This document shows, piece after piece, positions 12,639-52,575 of a stretch of 64,000 bases of DNA. Origin of the DNA: a virus (lineage: Duplodnaviria > Caudoviricetes); the IMG/VR virus record IMGVR_UViG_3300028197_001183, positions 1 through 64,000 of that record. One strand, given 5' to 3'. Both the position numbers and the translations under genes were made by a program. The stretch's first letter is position 1. The number at the start of each line of letters is the position of its first letter. Under the pieces are notes generated by a model. It was not told where the DNA came from. It did no database searches and saw nothing but the letters and a program-made list of their open reading frames with translations.

Positions 12639-12771
12639 TCTTTTTACCAGTTTCTAGATCACGAAGACGTTTCCGCCAATAACCACGGTCATTACTATCT
12701 TTACAAGGATTGTCTCTATCTTGAGTATCGTGAAGATCATCAAGTCCTTCTTTAGATTCCATTTTTGGCAT
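12616..12771 (-). CDS. Small hypothetical protein (51 aa)
   Basis: My translation MPKMESKEGLDDLHDTQDRDNPCKDSNDRGYWRKRLRDLETGKKNENPTDN fills the g55-g47 gap. Confidence 0.6.
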   Translation of the reverse strand: MPKMESKEGLDDLHDTQDRDNPCKDSNDRGYWRKRLRDLETGKKNENPTDN

Positions 12772-12775
12772 AGAG

Positions 12776-13252
12776 TTAATTACGCATGTTGGTTTCGATG
12801 CGACTCTTGATGGAATTCATATCAGCATGATTGTCATTCTCATCTGAGTGGAAGACCTGATCGTAACCATTCTTCTCGATAAGTTTATCACGGATATCCA
12901 TCTGACGCTTTTCCTTAGCAATTCGTCGCAAGAATGCATAGTAAACGATTTGCGTGAAATATGCAAATGGATTCTTGCTCTTAGCGGGATCGAAGTTATC
13001 GATGTATTGGACACAATTCTCTACACCATCGGAGATCATGTCCTCCTTATACATGTAGTTAATAAAATTAGGTCTATACGACAAGTGTACGGCAATCTTC
13101 AAGAAACAGTCTCCTAGGTAATGAGTGATCCTAGGTTTCACTTTATCTTGTATCTTAGCAATCGCAACAAGGTCTCGATACTTTACGATCTCCACAAGAA
13201 ACTTTTTGTTGTCAACGTAGTGTTGCTTTTTCTTAGGAGGCATTAAAGTCAT
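12776..13252 (-). CDS. g55: Late-transcription sigma factor gp55
   Basis: HYVDNK...LSYRPNFINY...DMISDG...NFDP.KSKNPFAYFTQI.YYAFLRRI. Confidence 0.97.
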   Translation of the reverse strand: MTLMPPKKKQHYVDNKKFLVEIVKYRDLVAIAKIQDKVKPRITHYLGDCFLKIAVHLSYRPNFINYMYKEDMISDGVENCVQYIDNFDPAKSKNPFAYFTQIVYYAFLRRIAKEKRQMDIRDKLIEKNGYDQVFHSDENDNHADMNSIKSRIETNMRN

Positions 13253-13274
13253 ATTTAATTTTGCTCACAAATAC

Positions 13275-13303
13275 ATTATAAAGGTTTATGTATCATAAGT
13301 CAA
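13275..13303 (-). promoter_or_regulatory. Sigma70-type promoter of g55
   Basis: TTGACT-17 nt-TATAAT on the minus strand, just upstream of the g55 start. Confidence 0.8.
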
Positions 13304-13305
13304 GC

Positions 13306-13352
13306 TTGACAACTCTAAGAATAATCATTATACTCAACCATGTAAGGGTTGA
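13306..13352 (+). promoter_or_regulatory. Antisense sigma70 promoter with 5' hairpin (element copy A)
   Basis: TTGACA-17 nt-TATACT followed by TCAACC-atgtaag-GGTTGA; back-to-back with the g55 promoter across the palindrome GTCAAGCTTGAC. Confidence 0.7.
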
Positions 13353-13360
13353 AAACAATA

Positions 13361-13789
13361 CTACTTAGAGTTCTTCCATTGATCCTCTAGTTTCTTTCTC
13401 ATCTCTGAGACTTTACCGATTAGACCCATATTTTCATTCATGGGTACACCAGGATCTACATCATCCATTAGTTTACCGTCCTTTCTCCACCACATCTTAT
13501 ACAGCATGATTGCTTCGGTGGACATCGGGGCAATGGTTACAATATCTGGCTCTTGGATAATGTAGAATTCTTCATCTGACCATAGCATCCACTTAACGAA
13601 TCCTGCAGCTAGTCCCATTTCACCATCAGGTTTCTCTATAGGGGTGAGTGTAGGAGACAAAGGATCAGACACATACACTATTGTGCAGTTGTCTTCATTC
13701 GTGGCAATCATTGTACCTATTACTTCCTCGCCAGTTACTAACTTGACGACTCCGAAAAATTCATTGTCGTGACGGATGTAGTTAATCAT
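13361..13789 (-). CDS. Conserved hypothetical protein downstream of uvsW
   Basis: FFGVVKLVTGEEV...FVKWM...MGLIGKVSEMRKKLE; ATGA-coupled to uvsW. Confidence 0.75.
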   Translation of the reverse strand: MINYIRHDNEFFGVVKLVTGEEVIGTMIATNEDNCTIVYVSDPLSPTLTPIEKPDGEMGLAAGFVKWMLWSDEEFYIIQEPDIVTIAPMSTEAIMLYKMWWRKDGKLMDDVDPGVPMNENMGLIGKVSEMRKKLEDQWKNSK

Positions 13790-15246
13790 TGTCGTAGGTT
13801 TACCTTAGTGATTTCATAATCAAATTTCTCTTCCTCATAGATTTTCAATCTTTCAATGAGGTGACGGAGAGTATAATTGTGTCTATTACCTCGGGAGCAG
13901 TCATCAGCAATGTCATACAACACCGCTTGTGCTTTGTTATCTCCCTTACGCAAGACACGTCCAATAGACTGGAGGTTTCTTACTCGTGATTTGGATGGAC
14001 TCGCAAAGATTACATTATGTAGGTTGCGAATGTTAATGCCTGTGGAGAATGTGCCGTAGGATGCAAGGATGATTGCATCTTTTTCCAACTCACATATTTT
14101 GCGAGCCTCTTCTCTTTCAACAGCATCTACACCACCATGAATAAAGAAGATCTTTCGATCTTTACTCACCTTAGTATTTAGCATCTCCCATAGAGGGTCA
14201 CCGTGCTTCTCGATGTAGTTGAATAGGATGAGTGTATTGCCACCTATGTCTTCTGCTAGGTTACAAATTAGGTTATTTCTCTTGGGGTGTGATACTATAT
14301 AATCCATCTCTTGCTGATAGGTATCAAATGGGACATGACCATGCTGCAGCAGAAGGCATTTTACTTTCAGTGGTGTCAGCTGTCCCTTTTTCATTAGATC
14401 GACAGTTGTGGTCACCCTATCACAGCGTCCGAATAGACCCTCCAGCACCAACTGATGACTATACATACCGTCTAATGTACCAGTCAACCCGATACGATAG
14501 CGAGCATCGTGACATTTATTCAGAATACCTGATAGACTCTTCGCCTTATACAGGTGTGCTTCATCGCCAATGATTACATCAAACCTTTCAAAGAATTTCT
14601 TAGGCTCTTTGTATATACTTTGCCATGTAGAGATGACTACAGGTGCTTCTACATACCTCTCCTTTCCACCCATGATCTGATGGACATAATGATCTGCTTT
14701 CCACCCGTAGTCTTTGAAGTCTTGCGTTAACTGTGAGACTAGAGAGACTGTAGGTACAATGATTAGGATCTCACGCTCCGCCTTAATGTGCCAGCGGACC
14801 AGACCATAAATGATCAGCGACTTTCCAGATCCTGTAGGCGAGAGTAGTAACTTGCGACGCTGCTTAATTGCCGTGAAAAGTGCTTTGAGTTGGTAGTCGC
14901 GAATCTTAAATGGCAGTCCCAAAGATCTAACAAAAGACGCCACTGATTCTGGTGATACATACTCCTCTTCCTCGTTTGGTATACCAAAGAATTTACTATC
15001 TTTGATAGCGTATTCATACCCCCTCTGGTCGAGATACTCTAAAAGGTAATCGTATAGACCGACATAGATCTCTCCTGTCCCTGGAGAGTACAATCGGATC
15101 TTACCGTCCCATACTTTTTTCTTATACTGTGGCATGAATTTAGCACCAGGCACTTCAAACTGGAAGTGCTCGCTTAATTCTTTATGGATGTGTTGCTCGC
15201 CTTCGACTTTTAGAAAAACTTCGTTTTTCTTCTCGATAGTAATCAT
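13786..15246 (-). CDS. uvsW: UvsW RNA-DNA/DNA helicase (SF2)
   Basis: RDYQ, SPTGSGKS, GDEAH, GLTGT, QSIGRVLR. Confidence 0.97.
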   Translation of the reverse strand: MITIEKKNEVFLKVEGEQHIHKELSEHFQFEVPGAKFMPQYKKKVWDGKIRLYSPGTGEIYVGLYDYLLEYLDQRGYEYAIKDSKFFGIPNEEEEYVSPESVASFVRSLGLPFKIRDYQLKALFTAIKQRRKLLLSPTGSGKSLIIYGLVRWHIKAEREILIIVPTVSLVSQLTQDFKDYGWKADHYVHQIMGGKERYVEAPVVISTWQSIYKEPKKFFERFDVIIGDEAHLYKAKSLSGILNKCHDARYRIGLTGTLDGMYSHQLVLEGLFGRCDRVTTTVDLMKKGQLTPLKVKCLLLQHGHVPFDTYQQEMDYIVSHPKRNNLICNLAEDIGGNTLILFNYIEKHGDPLWEMLNTKVSKDRKIFFIHGGVDAVEREEARKICELEKDAIILASYGTFSTGINIRNLHNVIFASPSKSRVRNLQSIGRVLRKGDNKAQAVLYDIADDCSRGNRHNYTLRHLIERLKIYEEEKFDYEITKVNLRQ

Positions 15247-15686
15247 CTGATTCCATAATACTTCACAATTTCGATAGTATTCTTGATTGCAAATCCACGG
15301 CTGTCGATTTGTTTAAGTATCCTATCAATACAATTTATACAAGTTTCAAGATAGTCTATTTTCTGTTGTGCTCTAGTGAGGTCTGGGTCACTATCAATGT
15401 ACACATGAAGGTCACCCTTGAGGATCTTGAGTGCAAAAGGTTTTTCTTTATAGACTGTGGCAGATGCTTTACCAGAATAATATTCAAACTTCTCACGCAG
15501 TAATACCTTGCGCTTTACCTCTGCTTCTGATAGCATGAGTTTGAATTGATTAACAAATTGCAAATACTTTGCATGGAGTCTGGGTGTTTCCATACTGTCG
15601 TTTGCCAACAGCTCAGGTAACTCCCTGTGATCAAAGAATCTTTCAGAATCCTTTGCCCACATCTCCTCAATTTTTTCTAGATTCAT
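15243..15686 (-). CDS. uvsY: Recombination mediator UvsY
   Basis: WAKDS...PRLHAKYL...YYSGKA...YIDSD...RGFAIKN.I; adjacent to uvsW. Confidence 0.9.
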   Translation of the reverse strand: MNLEKIEEMWAKDSERFFDHRELPELLANDSMETPRLHAKYLQFVNQFKLMLSEAEVKRKVLLREKFEYYSGKASATVYKEKPFALKILKGDLHVYIDSDPDLTRAQQKIDYLETCINCIDRILKQIDSRGFAIKNTIEIVKYYGIR

Positions 15687-43600: not shown

Positions 43601-44631
43601 CATCCACCTTGATCGTCTGCATCACCACCTTGGATGCTGTGTGATGGCTCTCCAAGTCCTGAACCGATATCCCTAATCGCTGCTTGATAAATTCTACCGT
43701 TACTTGCAATAACCTTGGAAAATCTAGGATATGCAGTAGCGTTATCGTAAGTGGTGAAAGATGTGCCAGTCTTCGCGCCCTCCGTTGCTGTGGCGATTGG
43801 TGAAGTATTAGCATAAACTAGACGACCATATCTGTCAACTTGGAAGTTAACGGTGTTAACTGTTTCCTCACCAGTTGAAGCACTAATCAAAGGATTGATT
43901 AGAGCATCCATCGAGTTGAGTGGATTATACTTACCCACCACAACTGTGGTATCTGCTAGGTCAACGAATGGATTATTAGTTTGAGCATTACCATTTTGTA
44001 CAATGATACGCCCACTACCACCAGTAACAGTGCGGTTTACTAGAGTGCCTTCTGCCTGACGAGAGATGAAACCAAAACCCGACATGTTTGCCAGAGAGGT
44101 TAGATCACTATCTAAAGGTTGTGCGTCACCAATACCATACTCAGCAAGAGTGCCAGGTGTTTCAGCATCGATAATACGACCACGAGAGTCTACCGTGATA
44201 CGTGTGTAGGTGCCAGTTGCTGCTAGGTCATTCTCATCGTAGTGAGGCAGTGCCACCACATAATTCAATTCGGCAGTAATGGTCAGGTTTGAGGATCCAT
44301 CAAACGTGCCAGCACCAGACATATCACCACCCAGGGCGATCTGTCGTGCGTTTGCCAGTCGGGTTGCCGTAGCAGAGTTACCAACGAGAGAAGCAGTAAT
44401 TGCACCTGCCTCAAAGTTACCGTCAGCATCACGTTTAACAAGCGTGTTAGCGGTATTAGATTCCGTCTCAATCGGTCTCTCATATCTTAGAGAGTTCCAG
44501 GCGGTTACACCATCACCGATTTTGATACGCGAGGTATCAATTTCGATTCCCAACTCACCTTGGGCGAGAATAGGGTTGACGTTTGCCCACTGCTGAGCAC
44601 CGTCACGTCTTAATTGTATTCTATTTGCCAT
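37693..44631 (-). CDS. Long tail-fibre-like protein (2312 aa)
   Basis: N-terminal RIQLRRD...NPILAQGE.G.E.DT..KIGDG..W attachment motif; repeated DRG.EFRYYD, NEI.T..GNL.LDSA.G and EGTNLY.T..R blocks. Confidence 0.85.
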   Translation of the reverse strand: MANRIQLRRDGAQQWANVNPILAQGELGIEIDTSRIKIGDGVTAWNSLRYERPIETESNTANTLVKRDADGNFEAGAITASLVGNSATATRLANARQIALGGDMSGAGTFDGSSNLTITAELNYVVALPHYDENDLAATGTYTRITVDSRGRIIDAETPGTLAEYGIGDAQPLDSDLTSLANMSGFGFISRQAEGTLVNRTVTGGSGRIIVQNGNAQTNNPFVDLADTTVVVGKYNPLNSMDALINPLISASTGEETVNTVNFQVDRYGRLVYANTSPIATATEGAKTGTSFTTYDNATAYPRFSKVIASNGRIYQAAIRDIGSGLGEPSHSIQGGDADDQGGWRDLGTDTTEQKGLASFDQEDFDVDANGHVTIAANAVENSQLQSLGHLMFTDQNATETFELDPERTTDNAYHGITKLNHINVNNRTGGSVFRIVGYDTGEYPFQPSILGQGNSYPAITADDANGNGSATSGSSLTGLVDVNLDATISGNITLDVTKANQFIKRTSGNLEIALEVNEATDRSMDINVTNAGSGDATLNVTSDQDITILVTDVDHRVNVEDFHFQDNVFSTTNAIMVLDPNDDDDITGTVRIRGDLTVDGVTTTVNSTVVTIQDPIMTLGGEDTLTVDDNKDRGIEFRYYDSQERFGFYGWDEDYADSNIWSGTGGYRFLYNATNTSEVYAGTDAPIIAGNLRLTTDTSSTWKTPTTGTLVVTGGTGISENLNVGGTTHLNGNVEIDGTVDIDANFAVRNNTTDKFTIASATGNTVIEGTLDIQLETEITDNLILTADNKEFIIRTAGSVNKFTVDSDNGNTDVQGTLHVVQGVDFDSTLNVDSNVTFNAELDVDDDVVFHNDFLMDVTGKYLTITNGSNQTFRILSTNGNTDIEGSLNVGGVNTFERTNNITIGETDSDITLSTGGNATFAGGVNMDKDLRVGGDIYLADRLVVKDAGTARTRPSLLNNVDVLYRTYMGGGTAHNASFANDADAQLRVAGGVGIVQDLHVGDDFYVGKVDTNDNVEFSILGESGYTTIGRVGQGNATDGAILVHGYATFNEQFTINGPLTTIGDANTDVLTVNAVSTFTDNVTINGDFDIDGNAIIEGNLTVNGVTTTVNSTVVTLDDPVITLGGDTAPTQSDAKDRGVEFRYYDSTARVGFFGWDVSAARYALYHNATNSSEAFSGSRSGLDAGSIKLFDTTNATNASSGALIVGGGVGIGLDLYVGDDLVVTDDGSFGGNVDITGTLDVTDDFAVGTTFTVDAQTGNTFANGTFNVNGNSQIGNQSGDSHTVNGTVQFNQALTAAERLNIRDLKVGTDAANEIGTSSGNLILDSAGGTVNITDNADVDGNLNVDGNTQIDGTLTVDGNATIGNQAGDNHIVTGTVTFNQAITSTDITADAVQIGVDANNEISTTTGNLILDSAAGKVHITDNAEVDGNLQVDGNTTLGDASGDTLTVNATSTFNAAIISTDITADAVRIGVAASNEIDTTAGNLVLDSAGGSVDITDNATVSGTLVVSDQTTINDTLIIDATNENFVIRSSLVDRFTVDTDNGNTFIAGTTQIEGLLTVNDNIDHNGNQDTSGTLTVGGRTELNGIVDVDADFAVRSGTTDKFSIASATGNFSTVGNGLVEGTLAVTDTAAFAEKVTLNVNATANRLTANAALMVTNGGIAVYEDSYFGQDIFVGPDQNETITFFGATGNITADGTITSAVVAATTANIATVNTTSNVNVGGSIVVNTNKFIVQGSTGNVTIDGTLDVAGRVIIDDTLNVTQNVDFDSDLNVDGNQQLDGTLTVDSTSLFKDSMVLRGATKTLKLQNGSGTDKITLNSTSGNAEITGLGTLGSLDVTNNSTMGGTLGVTGQITGNVTGDLTGTADKTNLVDVTDTTTSNLTYFPAFVSSNNGFTEVRTDSTNLTYNPSTNTLTVDNFKSVTDFEIQGNLNVTGALTFFQSQVGSIANHDTGDLVEGTNLYFTDERVDDRVNALITGGTGITATYDDAGNILTLSATQGDINTDNITEGSSALFTTAARTRSHFSYGTGIEHDGSGALSVTQSDINTDNVTEGSTNIFFTQSRARGAFSAGGDLAYNASTGVFSFTQRTNSQVNGLADTRIALNVGTNLDLSNQDTADLAEGTNLYYTNSRADARIALQVGANLDISNQSTSDLSEGTNLYYTDARADARASAAITALGLGTAATTAATAYATAAQGTLAASATQPGDLATVATSGSYNDLANLPSLFSGAYNDLTGKPTLFSGAYNDLTGKPTLGTAAATAATAYATAAQGTTADSALQAETITLTTLKSVAAAAADFAAFQAAIAAL

Positions 44632-44672
44632 TGCTTAAAAGGATCCTAGCACAACAGTTAGTCTGTCTGACT

Positions 44673-44679
44673 TATTTAT
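44673..44679 (-). promoter_or_regulatory. Late promoter (fibre gene)
   Basis: ATAAATA immediately after a terminator. Confidence 0.75.
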
Positions 44680-44685
44680 GTCACG

Positions 44686-44707
44686 AAAAACCCCCTTTTC
44701 GGGGGGT
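44686..44707 (-). terminator. Rho-independent terminator
   Basis: ACCCCC-cgaaaa-GGGGGT followed by TTTT. Confidence 0.8.
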
Positions 44708-44712
44708 AGGGG

Positions 44713-44958
44713 TCAAGTAGTTTCCAGGTCATCGGGATCGACAGTCCCGTCTGGAAGTGGCTCAGCTTCTTCTTCAGTAGCAGGTGGATTGAGATACTCA
44801 AGAGTCTCAATAGCACCTAGAAGTTTTAGAGCGGTAGCTTCATTGCTCTTAATCTTGTCTGCCATCTCACGGTTGTCTTTCAAAAGACCCTGGTAGCGAG
44901 TTTTGAATTGCTCAAGCAATTCCTCTTGTGAGGCAGTTTCAGTCACATCAGCTGGCAT
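44713..44958 (-). CDS. Small acidic coiled-coil protein (possible fibre chaperone)
   Basis: AGGAG before ATG 44958; ...NE..ALKLLGAIETLEYL. Confidence 0.7.
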   Translation of the reverse strand: MPADVTETASQEELLEQFKTRYQGLLKDNREMADKIKSNEATALKLLGAIETLEYLNPPATEEEAEPLPDGTVDPDDLETT

Positions 44959-45238
44959 TGTTGTCTCCTTGTAGTAATGATTTAAGTAGGTTTTTGATTT
45001 CACCGATATCTGATTTTAACCCAGATACCTCATCTTGTAAAGTGTTTAACTTCTCCTCTTTCTTGGTGCGACGATTAAATGCCGCCATATAGTTGTCATA
45101 CTCTGACATATTACAATTCACAATAGCATTACTATTTGGGTCACGAAACCAACCATCCCTGCCTTCAACAGGGATTAGGTCTTCTTTGAATGGTTTAATG
45201 TAATCAGTTGAGTCAGTTGAGTCAGAAATGCTTGACAT
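44948..45238 (-). CDS. Hypothetical protein
   Basis: PVEG...RDP.S.AIVN....YD.Y...LKSDI.EIK.LL; ATG at 45238. Confidence 0.75.
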   Translation of the reverse strand: MSSISDSTDSTDYIKPFKEDLIPVEGRDGWFRDPNSNAIVNCNMSEYDNYMAAFNRRTKKEEKLNTLQDEVSGLKSDIGEIKNLLKSLLQGDNNAS

Positions 45239-45274
45239 ATCCAAGAATAATTATTATAATAACCGTGTTAGGTT
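45232..45274 (+). promoter_or_regulatory. Antisense sigma70 promoter with 5' hairpin (element copy B)
   Basis: Perfect TTGACA-17 nt-TATAAT followed by AACC-gtgtta-GGTT, which overlaps the stop codon of the 2435-aa gene. Confidence 0.72.
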
Positions 45275-48200
45275 GCAAGAGCAATGGATCTGAGATCAGC
45301 TATGAGTGGTACTCGTGCTTGATTTTTAGATCTCATTACAATCTTCACTTGGAAGGCGTTAAAGTTAAGTCCCCTTGCTTCATATGTATAATCCTTCCAA
45401 AGGTATTCTTCTGTAGGAGTTGTATCATATGCTTCACCTAAGTTTTGATTGGAAGTGGGGAGACCCATTTGTGTCCAACCAATAGTCTGAGGATCAGTTG
45501 CATCACCAACCTTGAATGCCTTGTAGTAAATACGAAGCTCGGTAGCAGGGTGACGGGTAACTTGGAAGTCAATCTTCAGTGAGCGTGCTTCTTTACCCAA
45601 ACGTGCGAGACGTGTGACATAGACAGCATCATTTTGATCACCAATTGCAAGAGTAGAAACATCCTGGTCTCTATCAATTTGTGATTGCTGACCGTAAGTT
45701 GATTGTCCACCTGGCCACATATTCACGCGGTTAGATGTTGTAATCAGTGACACACGGTCAAGGTCAATACAAGGTGAGAGGGATGATTTCTCAGTCTCAA
45801 GCATGATTGACATAGTAAGAGACTTGTTACCATCCAGTTTGTTTTGCTCATTAATCTTAGATGCTACCATCTGAGGAGCAGTAAACTGGTTTTGCTCATT
45901 CAATACAATGTCAACATAAGTGCCATTATTGATGAAAGAGTTTTGGTCAACTACATTAGATCCATCACCAACGGATGTAGCAGTAGTGGTATTCAATCTT
46001 GCTGATATTTGTGTGTCTGCCATAACCATCGTAGACACCGTAGGTGTAATGGTTTCAAACTGGACATTCTGCGAAGAATAAACGTTAGTGCCACCACCAC
46101 GAATACCGTTAGTCGCAACACTATCAATGTGCAACATGTAGGTATCTAACCATGGGCAAGAGATAGTAGTATGGACCTTATTGATTTGGGTTAGAGGAAT
46201 GCCATCAAGGTTGTAGCATTCAACAACTGCACCAGAGGCGTGCTCAACATCAGCAGTGCCATTGTTACCTCTACCAGAGGTTGCCACTGTGATAACTTGA
46301 CCGTTAGAAGAGATCGAAGAGTATTGAATAATCTCATCTTCAATCTTCAAATAACCTTGGTTAAGGTTGCCAATTGGAGATCCACCAATAATGATATGGA
46401 ATTGAGATCCGTCATTGACCTGAATTGAAGTTGATCCAGCAGTCAGAGTAGTTGTCAACGTAGTAGGAGGCACTTCGGAGATAATACCCTCAACCTCAAC
46501 GTTGTTGCTACGTTGGTGCATACCATGGTTTCTGTGATAAACCAATACTTCCTTGTCATCATTAGGATAAGAAGGAGCAGCAGTTGGGAATGCATTGTAG
46601 GAATCGCCGCTGTAGGTGACGCTAGTGATCGTTGCAGATGTGCCACCTGGCTCAGATAGAGTATCCGAAAGATCGTATGCTCTAGTGATGTAGTTAAGTG
46701 TCAATGTCTGGGTCCCAGTATCATATGCTGTGACAACACCAGTTGAAGCAGATGTGGATCCACTTACAACATCACCAACTTCAAACGTGCCGTTAAAGAT
46801 TGCAGACAGGACAATCGTGGCGACAGATTGGGAAGAGGCGATGCCTTGGAATGTATTGTTGTTAGCATCGAGGAAACCAGCAGACCAGATACCGTCAATA
46901 TCTGAGATAGTAATGGTTTCAGGATCAGTAGTTGCGTCAAATTCAGTAATCGTGCCTTCTGCATTAGAAGGTGTTTGGACGATTCTTGCACCAACTGTAA
47001 ATGTGTAGTTGGTACCCACAGGAAGCGTGAGAGTCTGCTTAGGTTTCAGAGTCTGAATTGGATTTTCAATCAGTCTGTGAATACCATTGTTACCCTTACC
47101 AAGCTCAGCGTTGTTAAAGATCGCAGTGCCCAGATTCTGAGTAAACTCAGCACGATACATTGTAAACTTAAGATCTTCATACTGGTCAGCAGTCCAGGTA
47201 GAAGCGTTTTGGGACTTGAAGAGCACACCAGCATATGGTTGCTCGGAAATTGTCCTTGTGCCTGTCACATCAACGTCACCCATTCTGGAGATCCAAACGT
47301 TATATTCGTTGGAGTCAGACAGAAGCACGAAGCAATATTCAATGTTTGATTTAATATAAACAGGAGATCTGAATGTAAATCTTGTAGGAATACTTGCGTT
47401 TTCCGACAACTCCACAGTGTCAGGATCGATAGTAGTATCAGAGAAAGGAATAATATCCTTGGTAGGATAACCATTCTCCATTGTCCTGATCTGAATTGAG
47501 ATAGGAATGTTAGCGTCCTTAGTCCTGAAGAAGATGTCAACACCTGTCAAGAATACGCCGCCTTCCGAATCGCAAATAAAGGATTGTGCAAGAGGGTCAT
47601 ACCAACCAATCTGACGTTGCTCAGTTCTGGTAGTAATAACAGTCCTTTCATCGTTAACTGTATCGCGGACGATCTCAGCATTACGCATAGCAAGGATGTT
47701 TTCTCTAACAGTCTGTAAGGTGCCAGTTGCAGAGTATGCTGCATCTGCAGAAGAGTCTACATTTCCAGGAGTCCTATCATTAGTATCCGAAGTTGTGACT
47801 CTAACCGTCCTTGTGCCAGTTGCCCAGCGTGGGTTAGAATCATTCTTAGGAGAAGGAATGAAGAAAGTACCTTGTAGGTTACCAACGTTATCAGCAAGAA
47901 GACGACGGTCTCTTACAACAGCACGAGCGCCAGAGGTCAGTCCAAGAAGGACTTCACCCACGTTGACGTTACCGTAGAAGTTGGGGTTGACTGTCTCTGC
48001 CATTGCAGTGATATCAATATTCAAGAAGTTGGTTTGTGATGCATAAGACTCAGCAAGTCCAGTTGCACCAACACCATAGGGGTCAGTCTTATATCCATCA
48101 TTAGCAGGAGCAACTAATATTCTTGCACCAGAAGTCTGACCCACCACAGTTTCACCAACCACGAAAGGAGTTTCGTTGGAGTTGGGATCTGAAGTAGAAG

Positions 48201-51200
48201 ACTTAGTAAGCTCAATAACCTTGGGTGTTACATAACCACTGACATTAACGCCATCGAAGAAGTAATACATTCTTGTGCGAGGTTTCAGACGGTCGATGTT
48301 GAAACCAATGTTTCTAGACCTAATCCAAGGGATTGCTGTTTGCGACAGCATAGTGTCACCTAAAGACTTACGATCAATCTTGGGAGTAACACGAGTCCTA
48401 ACACCTTGACGTGCTTGGTTGTTAACAACACGATAGGTGCGTCTCTCATGCACAAACAGAGGTTGACGACCTTGACCATGACCCAATCTACCAAGTCTAC
48501 GACCACCAGAGGCGAAACTACCAGATCTGTTGGAGAATCTAGAAGTAGATTGGACCGACTCACCAGTCCAGTTAGTTTGCCAACCACCCCATTGGATAGG
48601 AGCAAAACCATTCTGGTCAATCTGAAGGTCTCTAGCAACAGCAGAGAAGTCACCTTCAACGTTTTCAACACGAGCAGGAAGACGCTCGATATCAATCCAG
48701 TCGTCAGATGCAGGTGTCAGGTCAATACGACCAATGAATGTAAACACGTTGAATGGGTTAACATTCTCAGTCCTAGATGCATATGGTTGGGTAATGATTG
48801 CCAAATCTTCGTAAGGCAGCATCACCATGTTTCCAGTAGTCTTAACGACGTTGCTGGATGCACCCATGTTAATTTGCAGGGGCACATTAGTAGTATAGTG
48901 TGAAGGACGGAGGTGACCCTCCTTAAAGTCCATAGAGCACTTATAGTCAATACTGAGCACGTCACCAACAGTGTGGTCGGTAAAGTCATCTACAACATAA
49001 CCATTCTTCAGGCGGTCGAAACCGTTATCATCATATGTTTTAGTATTATCTGCTTGTACTTCCAACAGAGACAATGAAGTGTAATACTCAACATGAGAGA
49101 GTCTGGTCTCCAGATCTCCAATGTCCTTCATTGTATAGCGTTTAATGATCTCAGGATAGATCAAAACATCACGCTCAACGTCATACACATATGGACGCAT
49201 CTCAATCGTTGCGAGAAGCATCGCATTATCAATTTTATCAGGATGAGGAAGATTCTCAGATGACACACCCTTGACAATCTTCAGTTTGTTATCATGTGTC
49301 AAATACAACTTGTCTGCTCTAGGAAGATAGAAGCAGTAGTCACATCTAAATTCTGTGTTGACCTTTGGTATATCAAAGATGGTAGATCCACCAACACCAC
49401 CAGAGGTATCAAATTGCCTAGATCCAAAATCAAGTGACGCACAATTCACAAAGAACGGTGACGTGATGGTGCCAGATCCAGATGCTAATTCACCGATACC
49501 AGGACGGAAGTCAATCTGGTCACGGATATAGTTAATTGATCCATCCAGTTTATACTTAGGAATCTCCTTATACATGATGCCAGTGTAAGACTGGGCTGAG
49601 AAGTAGTCACCTGAAGACTCATGCAAGAAGTAATCAAAGACCACGAGTACCTTACGGATTGGAGGAGAGAATCCAGGAAGACGAGTCAGTTTGCAAACAT
49701 CATAGAAGTGTGCTTTCTGACCACTCTCCAACTCAAACTGAGTTGTGATAACCTTAGATCCTTTAGAAACAGATCCTTCAGAGTCATCAACAATTGCCTG
49801 TAAAGGATTGCTATCATCATCAACACCATCGATGGTTTCACCAGGGATGAATGGAATTTCGTTAAGAGCAACAAAGTACAGTCTCAGGGTGCTGTTGACA
49901 AACTGCACGACTCGACCACGAGCACCAGAGGTTTTACCAACAACAACTGTGCCGTTATCAAAGAAAGTAGATTCTGACAACACCATGTAAGGTGATTCAG
50001 CATCATTATCATTCTCAGATTCATACACAGCATGAATTTTATAGACATCATTCAATGCAAATGAAATCTCTTCATCTTCAATACGGGTGCCATACAGGTT
50101 ACCATATGCCAGACCATACTTGGTTTGGTCATTGTTAACTCGTGTGCGGGTCACCTTCATTGCACGCATCTTAGCGGCAGTCTTAATTTTTCTAGTGACA
50201 ATATTCTTAGAGATAAGAGCAGTCAACTTAACGGTGTTGACATTAGTCAAACCAGAGATGGTAATAGACTGTGCATCAGCACCAAAGGTAACAGTCAGAG
50301 ATCCAAGGTCATTGAGGTTATCAATGTCAAGGTTATCACCAACGTTATATGAAGATCCAGACTCAGCAACAATCGTCAATACATAGTTTTCATCATCAAG
50401 TGATGCAAACTGCTCAGATTCAGGCAGAGATACAGTAACACCACCAGACACAACGGTCTTATTAGCGAATGTCCTATAGACAAAGAATGATTCGTCAGAG
50501 ATTGACTTCATCGATGTGCGAGGTGTGTCAATAGACAACTCGCCATTCTGGTAGTCTTTTTGGAAGATGAAAGGACGCATCCTTACCATCTCAGAATACT
50601 CACCGTCAGCGTTACCACTACCCTTCTTAAGGGAGGCATCCATAACAGCAGTTTGGGCGAGGTAATCAAAGATTGCTGCTCCACCTGTAGCGATGTTACC
50701 AGTGTTGGTAGCAATCAGTGTAGGATCAACTCTCTTAATTCTTAAAGTATTGGCACCATTTAGACCAGATGCAGTTGTAGTAACAACATCACCAGGACGA
50801 AGATCTTGTGCAAACTTGGTCCTAAAACCTGTAGCAAGAGCACCAGTACCACTAACGGTAACAGTAGAAGACTCAATAGATGATGCATCATTTAGCAACC
50901 AGTTTGCTGCAAATGTTACAACGTTGCTACCATTTCTACCAAGAGAGCGGCGGACATCAGACAGGTTATAAGTATGTGCTGCTTCTAGCGTGCCGATCAC
51001 ACGACCATCTCTTTCAACAACTTCGTTGTTAAGGAAACGACCAGAGACCTGCTCTAGTTTGCAGTGGGTGCCACTACCATTGTCAGCAACAAAACCACGA
51101 GCACCAGAGGTGCGACCTCTTAATACATCACCAATAGCAACAGAGTTGTTACCAGAAGCAAAGTTGACGGCAGTAAACATCTGTGGGTCAAAGAACCACA

Positions 51201-52575
51201 TGTCATACTGGTTTGTCTGATCAACTTGAATCTGTACAATACGAGCACGACCGATTTGAGTGCCGACAACTGAGTTGGATACACCAACATTCCAGTCATC
51301 ATATAATTCAATAACTTGGTATGCATCAGATACACCTTCACCAGTTAGGTCAGCCCAACCATACTGATCATAGACCTTAACAAAGTTGCCAAGTCTAAAA
51401 TGGATAATTCCATTTTCTACACAAGAGAAATCTCTAGGTTTGGGAGAGTCAATATACTGAGGTGTAAGGAATTCAGTCCTGTATCCTTTAACGTACGCTC
51501 TACCAGGAGAGATCTCATAACTTAAGAGATCATCTGTAGGAGTATTGTTTTGCTGAGTCGTTTGAGCAGGAGTGTAGACCCCGTTGTTAAACCCATCATC
51601 AAGACATTCTCTTGCCTTGATACTGAAAGTGTCGATAACATAGTCACCAGACTCTTCATATGTCCGACGTGCAAGAGACTTCTCAAGCTCTGAGTATGCA
51701 GTATGATCAACAAACTGCTCAACTTTACTGTTGTTGATTCGTAGTAATTCAACGAAGTTTTTGTCAGTTGAATCATTGATTGCTTTCTTAACAAGCGTAG
51801 TCTTAATCTTAAATCTATGACCGCCAGGTGCTGAGTAGTTTGAAGTGCCTGCAGCATTGTCATTCAGTGACGGATCGTCTTCTGGGGTAACAATAGATTC
51901 ACTAACTTCTAAACCAACCCTATAAGAAGGGTTATTGCTATATTGCTCAAGGATCAGGTTTGCAGATTCAACATCAACAAAGTGACCTCTAATAAAGTAC
52001 ACACCATTGTTAATGTATGCAGCAGATGCAACCGCAGTAGAGTCAACGGGTAGCAACTGTCCAAATGGTGATCCAATTTCAATCAGTGTTGTGCCGAAAG
52101 TAATTTCGTTTTGGGCAAGCAACTGTTCGTTTGGTTGGAATCCTTTAATGGTGGTGTCAGAAACTGTATCACCAGACTCAATATACTTAACGTATAAAGT
52201 AACGTAACCACGCTCAGATTCTGAACCAGCAATTGAATACAAGACCTTTGCTTTCACGCCAGTCGTGATGCCCTCAATAATCTGACCGTGTAGCTGAGTC
52301 CTGTAGGTTTCGACATCTACACCTAGGAATGATTGTTGCAGAATGATTGCCTGAACATTCAGGTCATAACCGACCTGACCAGGAATAACCATCGCACCTT
52401 CTTTGAAGAAGTGTTGACCGATGGATTCAATCTGATTCTGGAGAATCGATTGTAGAGTCGTTAATTCACGAGCTTGGATAGGATACCCAGGTCGAAACAA
52501 CACTCGGTAGAAATTCTTATCCTTATCGAAGTCGTCGAAATAAGGAGCAATATTTAGATTGGTATTCTGGGGCAT
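45268..52575 (-). CDS. Large baseplate/virion structural protein (DUF4815/VrlC-like, 2435 aa)
   Basis: NLN..PYFDDF...VLF.PG.PIQARELT.LQS.LQ.Q; DPLAQSF; LFKSQN..TW; follows g8. Confidence 0.85.
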   Translation of the reverse strand: MPQNTNLNIAPYFDDFDKDKNFYRVLFRPGYPIQARELTTLQSILQNQIESIGQHFFKEGAMVIPGQVGYDLNVQAIILQQSFLGVDVETYRTQLHGQIIEGITTGVKAKVLYSIAGSESERGYVTLYVKYIESGDTVSDTTIKGFQPNEQLLAQNEITFGTTLIEIGSPFGQLLPVDSTAVASAAYINNGVYFIRGHFVDVESANLILEQYSNNPSYRVGLEVSESIVTPEDDPSLNDNAAGTSNYSAPGGHRFKIKTTLVKKAINDSTDKNFVELLRINNSKVEQFVDHTAYSELEKSLARRTYEESGDYVIDTFSIKARECLDDGFNNGVYTPAQTTQQNNTPTDDLLSYEISPGRAYVKGYRTEFLTPQYIDSPKPRDFSCVENGIIHFRLGNFVKVYDQYGWADLTGEGVSDAYQVIELYDDWNVGVSNSVVGTQIGRARIVQIQVDQTNQYDMWFFDPQMFTAVNFASGNNSVAIGDVLRGRTSGARGFVADNGSGTHCKLEQVSGRFLNNEVVERDGRVIGTLEAAHTYNLSDVRRSLGRNGSNVVTFAANWLLNDASSIESSTVTVSGTGALATGFRTKFAQDLRPGDVVTTTASGLNGANTLRIKRVDPTLIATNTGNIATGGAAIFDYLAQTAVMDASLKKGSGNADGEYSEMVRMRPFIFQKDYQNGELSIDTPRTSMKSISDESFFVYRTFANKTVVSGGVTVSLPESEQFASLDDENYVLTIVAESGSSYNVGDNLDIDNLNDLGSLTVTFGADAQSITISGLTNVNTVKLTALISKNIVTRKIKTAAKMRAMKVTRTRVNNDQTKYGLAYGNLYGTRIEDEEISFALNDVYKIHAVYESENDNDAESPYMVLSESTFFDNGTVVVGKTSGARGRVVQFVNSTLRLYFVALNEIPFIPGETIDGVDDDSNPLQAIVDDSEGSVSKGSKVITTQFELESGQKAHFYDVCKLTRLPGFSPPIRKVLVVFDYFLHESSGDYFSAQSYTGIMYKEIPKYKLDGSINYIRDQIDFRPGIGELASGSGTITSPFFVNCASLDFGSRQFDTSGGVGGSTIFDIPKVNTEFRCDYCFYLPRADKLYLTHDNKLKIVKGVSSENLPHPDKIDNAMLLATIEMRPYVYDVERDVLIYPEIIKRYTMKDIGDLETRLSHVEYYTSLSLLEVQADNTKTYDDNGFDRLKNGYVVDDFTDHTVGDVLSIDYKCSMDFKEGHLRPSHYTTNVPLQINMGASSNVVKTTGNMVMLPYEDLAIITQPYASRTENVNPFNVFTFIGRIDLTPASDDWIDIERLPARVENVEGDFSAVARDLQIDQNGFAPIQWGGWQTNWTGESVQSTSRFSNRSGSFASGGRRLGRLGHGQGRQPLFVHERRTYRVVNNQARQGVRTRVTPKIDRKSLGDTMLSQTAIPWIRSRNIGFNIDRLKPRTRMYYFFDGVNVSGYVTPKVIELTKSSTSDPNSNETPFVVGETVVGQTSGARILVAPANDGYKTDPYGVGATGLAESYASQTNFLNIDITAMAETVNPNFYGNVNVGEVLLGLTSGARAVVRDRRLLADNVGNLQGTFFIPSPKNDSNPRWATGTRTVRVTTSDTNDRTPGNVDSSADAAYSATGTLQTVRENILAMRNAEIVRDTVNDERTVITTRTEQRQIGWYDPLAQSFICDSEGGVFLTGVDIFFRTKDANIPISIQIRTMENGYPTKDIIPFSDTTIDPDTVELSENASIPTRFTFRSPVYIKSNIEYCFVLLSDSNEYNVWISRMGDVDVTGTRTISEQPYAGVLFKSQNASTWTADQYEDLKFTMYRAEFTQNLGTAIFNNAELGKGNNGIHRLIENPIQTLKPKQTLTLPVGTNYTFTVGARIVQTPSNAEGTITEFDATTDPETITISDIDGIWSAGFLDANNNTFQGIASSQSVATIVLSAIFNGTFEVGDVVSGSTSASTGVVTAYDTGTQTLTLNYITRAYDLSDTLSEPGGTSATITSVTYSGDSYNAFPTAAPSYPNDDKEVLVYHRNHGMHQRSNNVEVEGIISEVPPTTLTTTLTAGSTSIQVNDGSQFHIIIGGSPIGNLNQGYLKIEDEIIQYSSISSNGQVITVATSGRGNNGTADVEHASGAVVECYNLDGIPLTQINKVHTTISCPWLDTYMLHIDSVATNGIRGGGTNVYSSQNVQFETITPTVSTMVMADTQISARLNTTTATSVGDGSNVVDQNSFINNGTYVDIVLNEQNQFTAPQMVASKINEQNKLDGNKSLTMSIMLETEKSSLSPCIDLDRVSLITTSNRVNMWPGGQSTYGQQSQIDRDQDVSTLAIGDQNDAVYVTRLARLGKEARSLKIDFQVTRHPATELRIYYKAFKVGDATDPQTIGWTQMGLPTSNQNLGEAYDTTPTEEYLWKDYTYEARGLNFNAFQVKIVMRSKNQARVPLIADLRSIALAT

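Follow-up and report, generated by a model that had tools for sequence, protein, structure and literature searches.

We describe a promoter cassette that occurs twice, each time facing against the surrounding genes, in a stretch of 64,000 nucleotides (nt) of cyanophage DNA. This stretch, hereafter the window, is the first part of IMG/VR record IMGVR_UViG_3300028197_001183, a viral contig of 91,219 bp estimated to be 51% complete. It belongs to a T4-like cyanophage: its gp47 DNA is 78-79% identical to that of Syn9 and P-SSM7, and among named phages its gp55 is closest to that of P-TIM40 (77.6%). Copy A lies next to gp55, the gene for the late sigma factor, and copy B at the 3' end of a giant structural gene. 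Each copy joins a near-consensus sigma70-type promoter to a short inverted repeat, which we call the box. The observation of two antisense promoter copies is real. As to their meaning, we favor a reading in which both copies are genuine host-sigma70 (early-type) promoters that are maintained by selection and would have a local antisense and boundary or interference role, and we regard this reading as evenly balanced between right and wrong.

Two antisense promoter copies and their conservation

Copy A (13304-13351, + strand) reads GC-TTGACA-ACTCTAAGAATAATCAT-TATACT-CAACCATGTAAGGGTTG. Its core promoter at 13306..13334 consists of the -35 hexamer TTGACA (13306-13311), a 17-bp spacer and the -10 hexamer TATACT (13329-13334), and is directly followed by the box at 13335..13351, the inverted repeat CAACC-ATGTAAG-GGTTG. 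Copy B (45230-45275, + strand) reads GC-TTGACA-TATCCAAGAATAATTAT-TATAAT-AACCGTGTTAGGTTG, with a core promoter at 45232..45260 (-35 TTGACA at 45232-45237, 17-bp spacer, -10 TATAAT at 45255-45260) and the box AACC-GTGTTA-GGTT at 45261..45274. Re-reading of the DNA confirmed both sequences as they had been given in an earlier interpretation made from the letters alone (the sequence-only reading). Against the sigma70 consensus TTGACA-17-TATAAT, copy A matches at 11 of 12 positions and copy B at all 12, the top + strand scores in the contig, and by their hexamers as well as by a spacer within 17 +/- 1 bp both copies belong to the sigma70-type promoters. The similarity between them extends beyond this consensus, as the sequence-only reading had noticed, since both the box and the spacer are common to the two copies. 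A pattern of 31 positions covering the hexamers and the shared spacer, with at most three mismatches allowed, found copies A and B only, in the window as well as in the whole 91,219-bp contig; it gave no match in 100 shuffles, and the same pattern written backwards gave none in the contig.

Both copies run against the direction of the genes. Among open reading frames (ORFs) of at least 100 aa that start with ATG, 51 lie on the - strand of the window (20,024 aa) versus 7 short ones on the + strand (104-168 aa), and no conserved + strand ORF follows copy A or copy B in the relatives compared. The statements that the element is opposite to every gene and that no credible + strand gene follows it are thus borne out. 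Copy B is followed by a 12-codon ORF that has a CAAGAG leader, but relatives do not keep it and it was rejected. We also rejected, as a general feature, a - strand promoter built on the palindromic -10 (TTTTCA-17-TATAAT at copy A, TTGCAA-17-AATAAT at copy B), because the -10 in most relatives is TAGAAT or TACACT, and neither resembles a -10 when read as its complement.

Conservation was examined in three comparisons. A strict pattern that keeps the shared spacer returned 39 stretches from IMG/VR, of which 22 are A-like and 12 B-like, 4 carry a variant box and 1 has no box; one of these contigs holds both types, as the window does. The second comparison, independent of the motif, was anchored at gp55 and used the best 80 of 597 gp55 relatives together with six named phages, giving 86 loci with 62 distinct upstream regions. 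The third used a looser pattern with a free spacer and returned at least 120 stretches; with the earlier loci these make at least 124 distinct contexts, about 6 of which are chance matches without GGTT. In the gp55-anchored set, 35 of the 62 distinct regions upstream of gp55 (54 of the 86 loci) contain TTGACA-17-TAnnnT; every one of these is antisense, and 34 of the regions also have the box. The carriers include Syn9, S-SM1, S-RSM4 and S-RIM2. Conservation of position and orientation in related phages, which the sequence-only reading had proposed to look for, is therefore found on the gp55 side, and the B type is kept with the stop codon of the giant ORF in the loop of the box or 12 nt beyond it. 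The other 27 distinct gp55-upstream regions (32 of 86 loci) have a short gap with a sense promoter only.

The pattern of conservation is that of a promoter, with the hexamers and the 17-bp spacing fixed and the spacer sequence variable. Among the matches listed, the spacer is 17 bp long in every family member while its letters vary freely between lineages, and the -10 stays TAnAnT (TATAAT, TAGAAT, TACACT, TATACT, TACAAT). The shared spacer AAGAATAAT, on which the sequence-only reading had leaned, does not hold as a family feature and is confined to close relatives of the window phage. When 34 distinct gp55-upstream regions were anchored without gaps, the information per position was 2.00 bits in the -35 hexamer, 1.65 bits in the -10 hexamer, 1.15 bits in the box, 0.67 bits in the spacer and 0.45-0.47 bits in the flanks. 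It should be noted that these regions were chosen by a promoter regular expression that fixes TTGACA and three -10 positions, which makes the hexamer values partly circular but does not affect how box, spacer and flanks differ from one another. In many lineages the sense gp55 promoter holds the antisense -35 within its spacer (TTGACAnnnTTGTCAA), still as TTGACA, and this is difficult to account for without selection acting on the antisense promoter itself. Because the two copies are near-consensus, face against the genes and are conserved in many relatives, they probably make regulatory antisense RNA.

The cassette family and its box

The context of the cassette was classed for 119 distinct occurrences with enough flank among the matches listed, a few chance bacterial hits included. 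The downstream ORF lies on the opposite strand only in 87 of them, on the same strand only in 11, and on both strands in 21, which are mostly shadow ORFs. Two of the contexts are antisense, one in the gap between the Sm-like gene and gp55 and the other at the end of the giant structural ORF. The remaining two are sense: one lies after phrog_627, whose stop codon TGA is inside TTGACA, and before cpeT, and the other is ahead of the small phrog_718 gene in S-RIM2 and Syn9. Given that the sense copies drive real genes (cpeT and phrog_718), the cassette is a working promoter type. The phrog_718 product was tried as a possible regulator and discarded, as it has no Pfam match and is not encoded in the window phage's own contig.

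A profile built from 104 distinct aligned cassettes gave 7 strong hits (E <= 2.4e-7), three of them in S-RIM2 and two each in Syn9 and the window phage's contig, so that these three genomes hold 2-3 strong copies each. The next best hit has E = 0.17, and this gap indicates that the ordinary early promoters of Syn9 and S-RIM2 are not members of the family; sites of the ordinary type that match at 10 or more of 12 positions number 47 on the + strand and 14 on the - strand of Syn9, and 33 and 5 in S-RIM2. By pattern scan of whole records, one copy is present in each of Syn9, S-RSM4 and S-SM1, three in S-RIM2, two and one in two complete IMG/VR genomes, and none in P-TIM40 or MED4-213, the latter of which has an antisense TTGACA-17-TACACT without a box. 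Several ordinary early promoters share the leader pattern ..GGTA..CAAGAG.., located a few bases ahead of the ATG (record coordinates 18628, 19075 and 162082 in Syn9; 17140, 47407 and 159910 in S-RIM2). CAAGAG is also the end of copy B (GGTTGCAAGAGCAATG) and of some box variants, and the cassette may derive from this standard early-gene leader.

The cassette is carried by phages. When prokaryote species were scanned with one genome each, 13 stretches were returned, none of them in named Prochlorococcus or Synechococcus records, and 5 of the 13 are contigs of marine metagenome-assembled genomes (MAGs) that are cyanophage DNA (93-95% and 68-76% identity to the window). These five contigs (L237, L238, L232, L243 and L241) are cyanomyovirus DNA 93-95%, 70-74% and 68-76% identical to the window, and they are filed in bins named Euryarchaeota TMED129, Flavobacteriales TMED113 and Rhodopirellula NAT69, which looks like mis-binning. 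In 401 picocyanobacterial genomes the pattern matched twice, one match being chance-like, versus once for the control pattern. A host origin of the box was rejected on these grounds, namely no match in the named marine host records and the single contig obtained from the 401 genomes. A full-box cassette, TTGACA-17-TATAAT-AACCATGTCAGTGGTTCAGAG, is present in a picocyanobacterium recorded under the name Microcystis elabens FACHB-917, on the - strand of a contig (L235; G006:C56:329-373), 329 nt from the contig end and with a serine-recombinase-like ORF nearby. The host genome may here contain phage-derived or mobile DNA.

Transcription usually starts about 7 nt after the -10. The predicted starts, 13340-13342 for copy A and 45265-45267 for copy B, would therefore fall inside the loop of the box, so that the 5' arm should not be part of the promoter's own RNA, which should lack the hairpin. 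This speaks against the hairpin at the transcript start that the sequence-only reading had described, as the 5' arm comes after the -10 but before the expected start. Folded as RNA, the repeat itself is weak, with -5.0 (+ strand) and -3.4 (- strand) kcal/mol at copy A and -4.4 (+) and -2.7 (-) kcal/mol at copy B; in the - strand RNA at copy A it extends to a hairpin of -10.4 kcal/mol. A more structured + strand RNA after copy B (-23.7 kcal/mol, z -2.4) was rejected, as the stretch encodes a conserved protein C-terminus.

Pairing in the box was assessed in 88 distinct boxes, for which AAC and GTT were selection criteria. We used our own parse because a MAFFT alignment of 87 boxes left the loop ungapped; two chance matches without GGTT (L090 and L190) were dropped first. 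The loop is 6-8 nt long in 85 of the 88 boxes, and the fourth pair is C-G in 80, A-G in 5, C-A in 2 and T-G in 1. In 27 boxes AAC is preceded by an extra base, which in 25 of them pairs with the base that follows GTT (C-G 23, G-C 1, A-T 1), while in boxes without it the flanking T faces C in 38, G in 12, T in 9 and A in 1. Relatedness of the phages may explain this association with the extra base; the AAC and GTT arms do not vary. A leaderless mini-ORF consisting of a start (RTG) and a stop was rejected as a rule, being present in 50 of the 88 boxes.

In Syn9 (AACACTGTCAGGGTT) and S-RSM4 (AACTCTGTCAAGGGTT) the stem is weakened and the sequence is kept, and for this reason we regard the box as a sequence signal that is conserved and has some dyad character. 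It is also present in the sense copies before cpeT and phrog_718. A role as control or boundary signal for this class of promoters is more likely than one as a hairpin within the RNA that the promoter itself makes. Box variants agree between the copies inside one genome, which fits either a co-evolving factor or gene conversion between the copies. At four loci of the B-type context (L176, L141, L187 and L228), the -10 and the box are those typical of the gp55-side copy, TATACT-CAACCATGTAAGGGTTGG, which suggests exchange between the two copies of one genome.

Proposed early antisense transcription and its alternatives

In the mechanism that we propose, the cassette would consist of the -35, the 17-bp spacer, the -10 and a box of the form AAC(C)-RTGT-..-GGTT lying over the start site. 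Right after infection, unmodified host polymerase would load on both copies and transcribe non-coding RNA backwards. The RNA from copy A would run into the 3' end of the Sm-like/uvsW unit, and that from copy B into the giant structural gene, opposite its 3' end. The effect would be local, through head-on transcriptional interference and/or the formation of RNA duplexes, and the cassette would mark the boundary between an upstream unit and the next gene (gp55 at copy A, phrog_473 at copy B). Here we infer that the promoters fire, that they do so early, that transcription begins within the box and that the RNA has a role. The sequence-only reading had offered, as its second option, antisense units that restrain late genes early in infection; this accords with the best reading, with early firing itself a prediction.

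RNA evidence comes from contigs of public RNA libraries, which carry no strand, level or start information. It is best read together with the sense promoter of gp55, a sigma70-type TTGACT-17-TATAAT at 13275..13303 on the - strand with a predicted start at about 13268. This promoter and copy A stand back-to-back and together form the palindrome GTCAAGCTTGAC. In one metatranscriptome depleted of ribosomal RNA, contigs of a relative of about 91% identity end at 13268 and resume at 13330, leaving the promoter core (13269-13329) uncovered, and in two other runs a single contig bridges the gap. Position 13268 coincides with the predicted start of the sense gp55 promoter (a weak hint). Position 13330 is 5 nt beyond the repeat in the direction of the - strand; relative to the predicted + strand start, it is 10-12 nt upstream.

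Several results weigh against the early antisense and boundary role. The ends of these contigs fit a - strand RNA that ends past the hairpin better than a + strand start, which is a weak hint. The cassette is missing from 27 of the 62 distinct gp55-upstream regions and is therefore dispensable. The AAC and GTT stem bases, invariant in all 88 boxes, are uninformative on pairing because they never vary and were part of the selection. No canonical terminator was found that would bound the putative antisense RNA, either in 12700-14200 or on the + strand in 44600-46100. Weak candidates of a hairpin followed by U residues occur at varied positions in 23 of 40 distinct regions with the promoter and in 4 of 25 without it; we draw nothing from these counts, because the two groups represent different clades, whose protein ends differ.

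The hint from the contig ends leads to the alternative that survives best, although we consider it unlikely, namely that the cassette is a boundary element of the gene strand. The known model is the PeSL, a promoter/stem-loop cassette of T4-type phages in which a strong sigma70 promoter and an AT-rich region have a terminating stem-loop just upstream and which promotes exchange (PMC2839356, PMC4122927). The hairpin would here end or protect the upstream - strand mRNA, the sense gp55 promoter would have the AT-rich stretch as its upstream element, and the + strand promoter would be secondary or incidental. The order on the - strand at copy A, with stop codon, stem-loop, AT-rich stretch, -35/-10 and gp55, is indeed the layout of a PeSL (PMC4122927, PMC2839356). 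The contig boundaries of the relative at 13268 and 13330, the latter 5 nt beyond the hairpin, the extended - strand hairpin of -10.4 kcal/mol at copy A and the extra base pair in 25 of 27 distinct boxes point the same way.

However, the + strand TTGACA-17-TAnAnT is intact inside the sense spacer, and a mere AT-rich region needs no such promoter. Copy B has no sense sigma70 promoter to serve, and in the sense copies the hairpin comes after the promoter. The stem is weak on the - strand (-2.7 to -3.4 kcal/mol) with no U tract directly behind it, no terminator was found at copy A, and the box lacks the G+C-rich stem and direct U tract of an intrinsic terminator. The canonical terminator of this phage at 44707-44690 is quite unlike the box. 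In Syn9 the stem is broken (AACA..GGGTT) and the sequence kept. As for the RNA, another library contig spans the gap, and repeats can break contigs.

Somewhat less probable still, in our view, is that the box is an operator at which a phage or host factor shuts the promoter class; where the antisense promoter overlaps or adjoins that of gp55, this would release gp55 and so time the late sigma factor. The box lies over the start site, the usual position for a repressor, and is common to sense and antisense copies. Within one genome the variants agree, with AACACTG(T/C)CAGGGTTGA twice in Syn9 and AACCATGT..GGTT three times in S-RIM2, but gene conversion could explain this agreement equally well. 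The interleaved -35 hexamers would make the two promoters mutually exclusive in many lineages, whereas in the window they stand back-to-back without overlap. Also in favor of this reading, the cyanomyoviruses are described as being without MotA and Asi (PMC2984593). On the other side, the arm spacing of 6 to 8 nt is awkward for a dimer, and copy B is unrelated to gp55.

The sequence-only reading had put forward an R-loop replication origin, in which RNA from an early promoter stays hybridised and primes the leading strand as at T4 oriF and oriG until UvsW removes it. We find this unsupported and consider it improbable. The cassettes do have strong promoters with no gene to serve, and the transcript would start G-rich (GGG). 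T4 origins, each about 100 bp long for oriF and oriG, combine a promoter with a downstream element; oriE needs an early promoter, and the oriF promoter is shared with a gene (PMC3016281). Downstream of copy A the DNA is rather AT-rich, with a G+C content of 0.35 from +1 to +100 (3.8th percentile; window mean 0.436) and 0.36 from +1 to +50. At copy B, however, the corresponding values are 0.40 (21st percentile) and 0.46, within a range from the 21st to the 58th percentile, so that an AT-rich unwinding element just downstream is not consistent between the copies; the AT-rich part is the promoter region itself (G+C content of 0.23-0.25 in 13240-13329). The downstream DNA is ordinary coding DNA that differs between contexts. 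A promoter of the MotA type, that is, the middle-mode promoter of oriF and oriG with a MotA box at -30 and a -10, is not present, the -35 here being TTGACA.

Cumulative GC skew is monotonic, without an inflection, in Syn9, S-RIM2 and the own contig, which is a weak test because skew follows the gene strand. The presence of the cassette is patchy, with 27 of 62 gp55-upstream regions lacking it and no match by pattern scan in P-TIM40. A link to uvsY/uvsW or to tail-fibre genes does not hold for the cassette. Elsewhere it is an ordinary sense promoter, of cpeT and of a small early gene. If the idea were nevertheless right, for which we see little chance, the cassettes would be early-promoter-primed origins of cyanomyoviruses at one to three fixed places, with the box setting up or cutting the hybrid, and would be the first origins defined in these phages.

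A chance match or a decaying remnant without function is very improbable: AT-rich intergenic DNA easily yields -10-like hexamers and the cassette is dispensable in many relatives, but shuffles gave no match, the cassette is kept across several genera while its flanks diverge, and the strong hits of the profile are cassette copies only.

Known systems and gene neighbourhood

The cassette is best read as a variant of known promoter/stem-loop cassettes. Like the PeSLs of T4-type phages (Arbiol 2010, PMC2839356; Comeau 2014, PMC4122927), it is a short intergenic composite in a T4-like phage, in which a stem-loop and an AT-rich stretch accompany a sigma70 promoter that is nearly perfect (the PeSL promoter of RB49/phi1 reads TTGACA-17-TATAAT). 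It is likewise repeated within the genome, and copies of one genome are alike, fitting exchange. Unlike in PeSLs, where the stem-loop is upstream of the promoter, often G/C-rich and shown to terminate, the repeat of the cassette is weak and follows the -10. PeSLs are also many, lie in hyperplastic regions and face a gene with a Shine-Dalgarno sequence and ATG, while the cassette has 2-3 copies, some of them in core regions, and in two contexts points backwards with no gene. At copy A the cassette's own promoter faces the other way, and copy B serves no sense promoter. The cassette therefore departs from the PeSL definition both in the upstream terminating stem-loop and in the numerous gene-facing copies. 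The available text of the PeSL literature does not report PeSLs from cyanophages, and that of the S-PM2 paper speaks of few.

With oriF (uvsY) and oriG (34) of T4 (PMC3016281) the cassette shares a promoter whose transcript need not code, and the placement of one copy by recombination genes and one among large structural genes; oriE, too, has an early promoter. It differs from oriF and oriG in having a sigma70 -35 and no consistent AT-rich element, and in doubling as an ordinary gene promoter. A parallel in geometry is CfrI, a cis-antisense RNA of S-PM2 (Millard 2010, as cited in PMC2984593, PMC5931967 and PMC12197685). In both cases non-coding antisense transcription, here inferred from sequence, crosses the end of a coding gene in a T4-like cyanophage, and the arrangement of both copies fits a cis-antisense RNA of this kind. 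CfrI, however, is a mapped RNA of about 225 nt at psbA and a homing endonuclease gene, whereas the RNAs at gp55/Sm-like and at the giant ORF are predicted, and promoter and box here form a repeated cassette. The hexamers are the same as in the host-type sigma70 early promoters of S-PM2 and Syn9, which are read by unmodified host polymerase (PMC2984593). The ordinary early promoters of Syn9 and S-RIM2, in contrast, fail the cassette profile and face their genes.

CfrI is the one antisense RNA found in the available text of the T4-like cyanophage literature searched. A description of the cassette was not found in that literature, which did not include the Syn9 start-site study (Doron 2016) or supplements; a word search of Sullivan 2010 gave no occurrence of 'antisense' or 'stem-loop'. 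According to the available text of PMC2984593, T4-like cyanophages are missing the proteins by which T4 reprograms host polymerase to middle transcription. This raises the question of how these phages time their gene expression. In the cassette, the region's strongest host-type promoters point backwards, beside the late sigma gene and after the giant virion gene, which offers a handle on this timing, and the cultured carriers Syn9, S-RIM2, S-SM1 and S-RSM4 allow direct testing. If the cassette is a boundary or switch element, it would provide a compact engineering part for marine cyanobacteria. Should it be no more than a sporadic antisense promoter, the gain would be a useful annotation and a corrected origin idea.

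Near copy A, the - strand gene order is uvsY, uvsW, a gene of 142 aa, a 108-bp gap, gp55, a small ORF, gp47 and gp46. The sequence-only reading had placed copy A next to uvsW/uvsY; the neighbourhood is the same, but the actual site is the 108-bp gap between the Sm-like gene and gp55, 430 bp from the end of uvsW and 1.9 kb from uvsY. All four flanking genes are on the - strand. The gp55 gene (12776..13252) matches phrog_234 (E 3.7e-66), and the 142-aa protein (13361..13789) matches phrog_471 and the Pfam domain PF16243 Sm_like (E 5.7e-23). The UvsW-type helicase gene (13786..15246) is annotated as uvsW at the same place in S-SM1, Syn9, P-TIM40 and S-RSM4, and the UvsY-like recombination mediator (15243..15686) matches phrog_231 (E 4.6e-44). 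In cyanophage records the phrog_471 Sm-like gene carries the label 'methylamine utilization'. An Sm-like, possibly RNA-binding, protein is encoded exactly where copy A points into the 3' end of its gene. A scan of the whole window with Rfam 15 gave no match at the gathering score.

Copy B occupies the entire gap between the stop codon of the giant ORF (45268..52575, - strand; 2435 aa, phrog_358, function unknown) and the ATG of the gene for the phrog_473 virion structural protein (44948..45238, - strand). The stop codon at 45268-45270 sits in the loop of the box, and the likely ATG at 45238-45236 is the complement of CAT in TTGACAT, within the -35 region; in 9 B-type loci a gene start is only a few bases from the -35. 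After the phrog_580 gene, a canonical intrinsic terminator at 44690-44707 on the - strand (ACCCCCCGAAAAGGGGGT followed by TTTTT) shows the clear type used by this phage, from which the weak AACC/GGTT repeat looks quite different. Immediately to the left of copy B, at 45205-45231, the 9-bp unit TCAGTTGAG is repeated about 2.4 times, and these repeats encode, on the - strand, DST repeats at the N-terminus of the phrog_473 protein.

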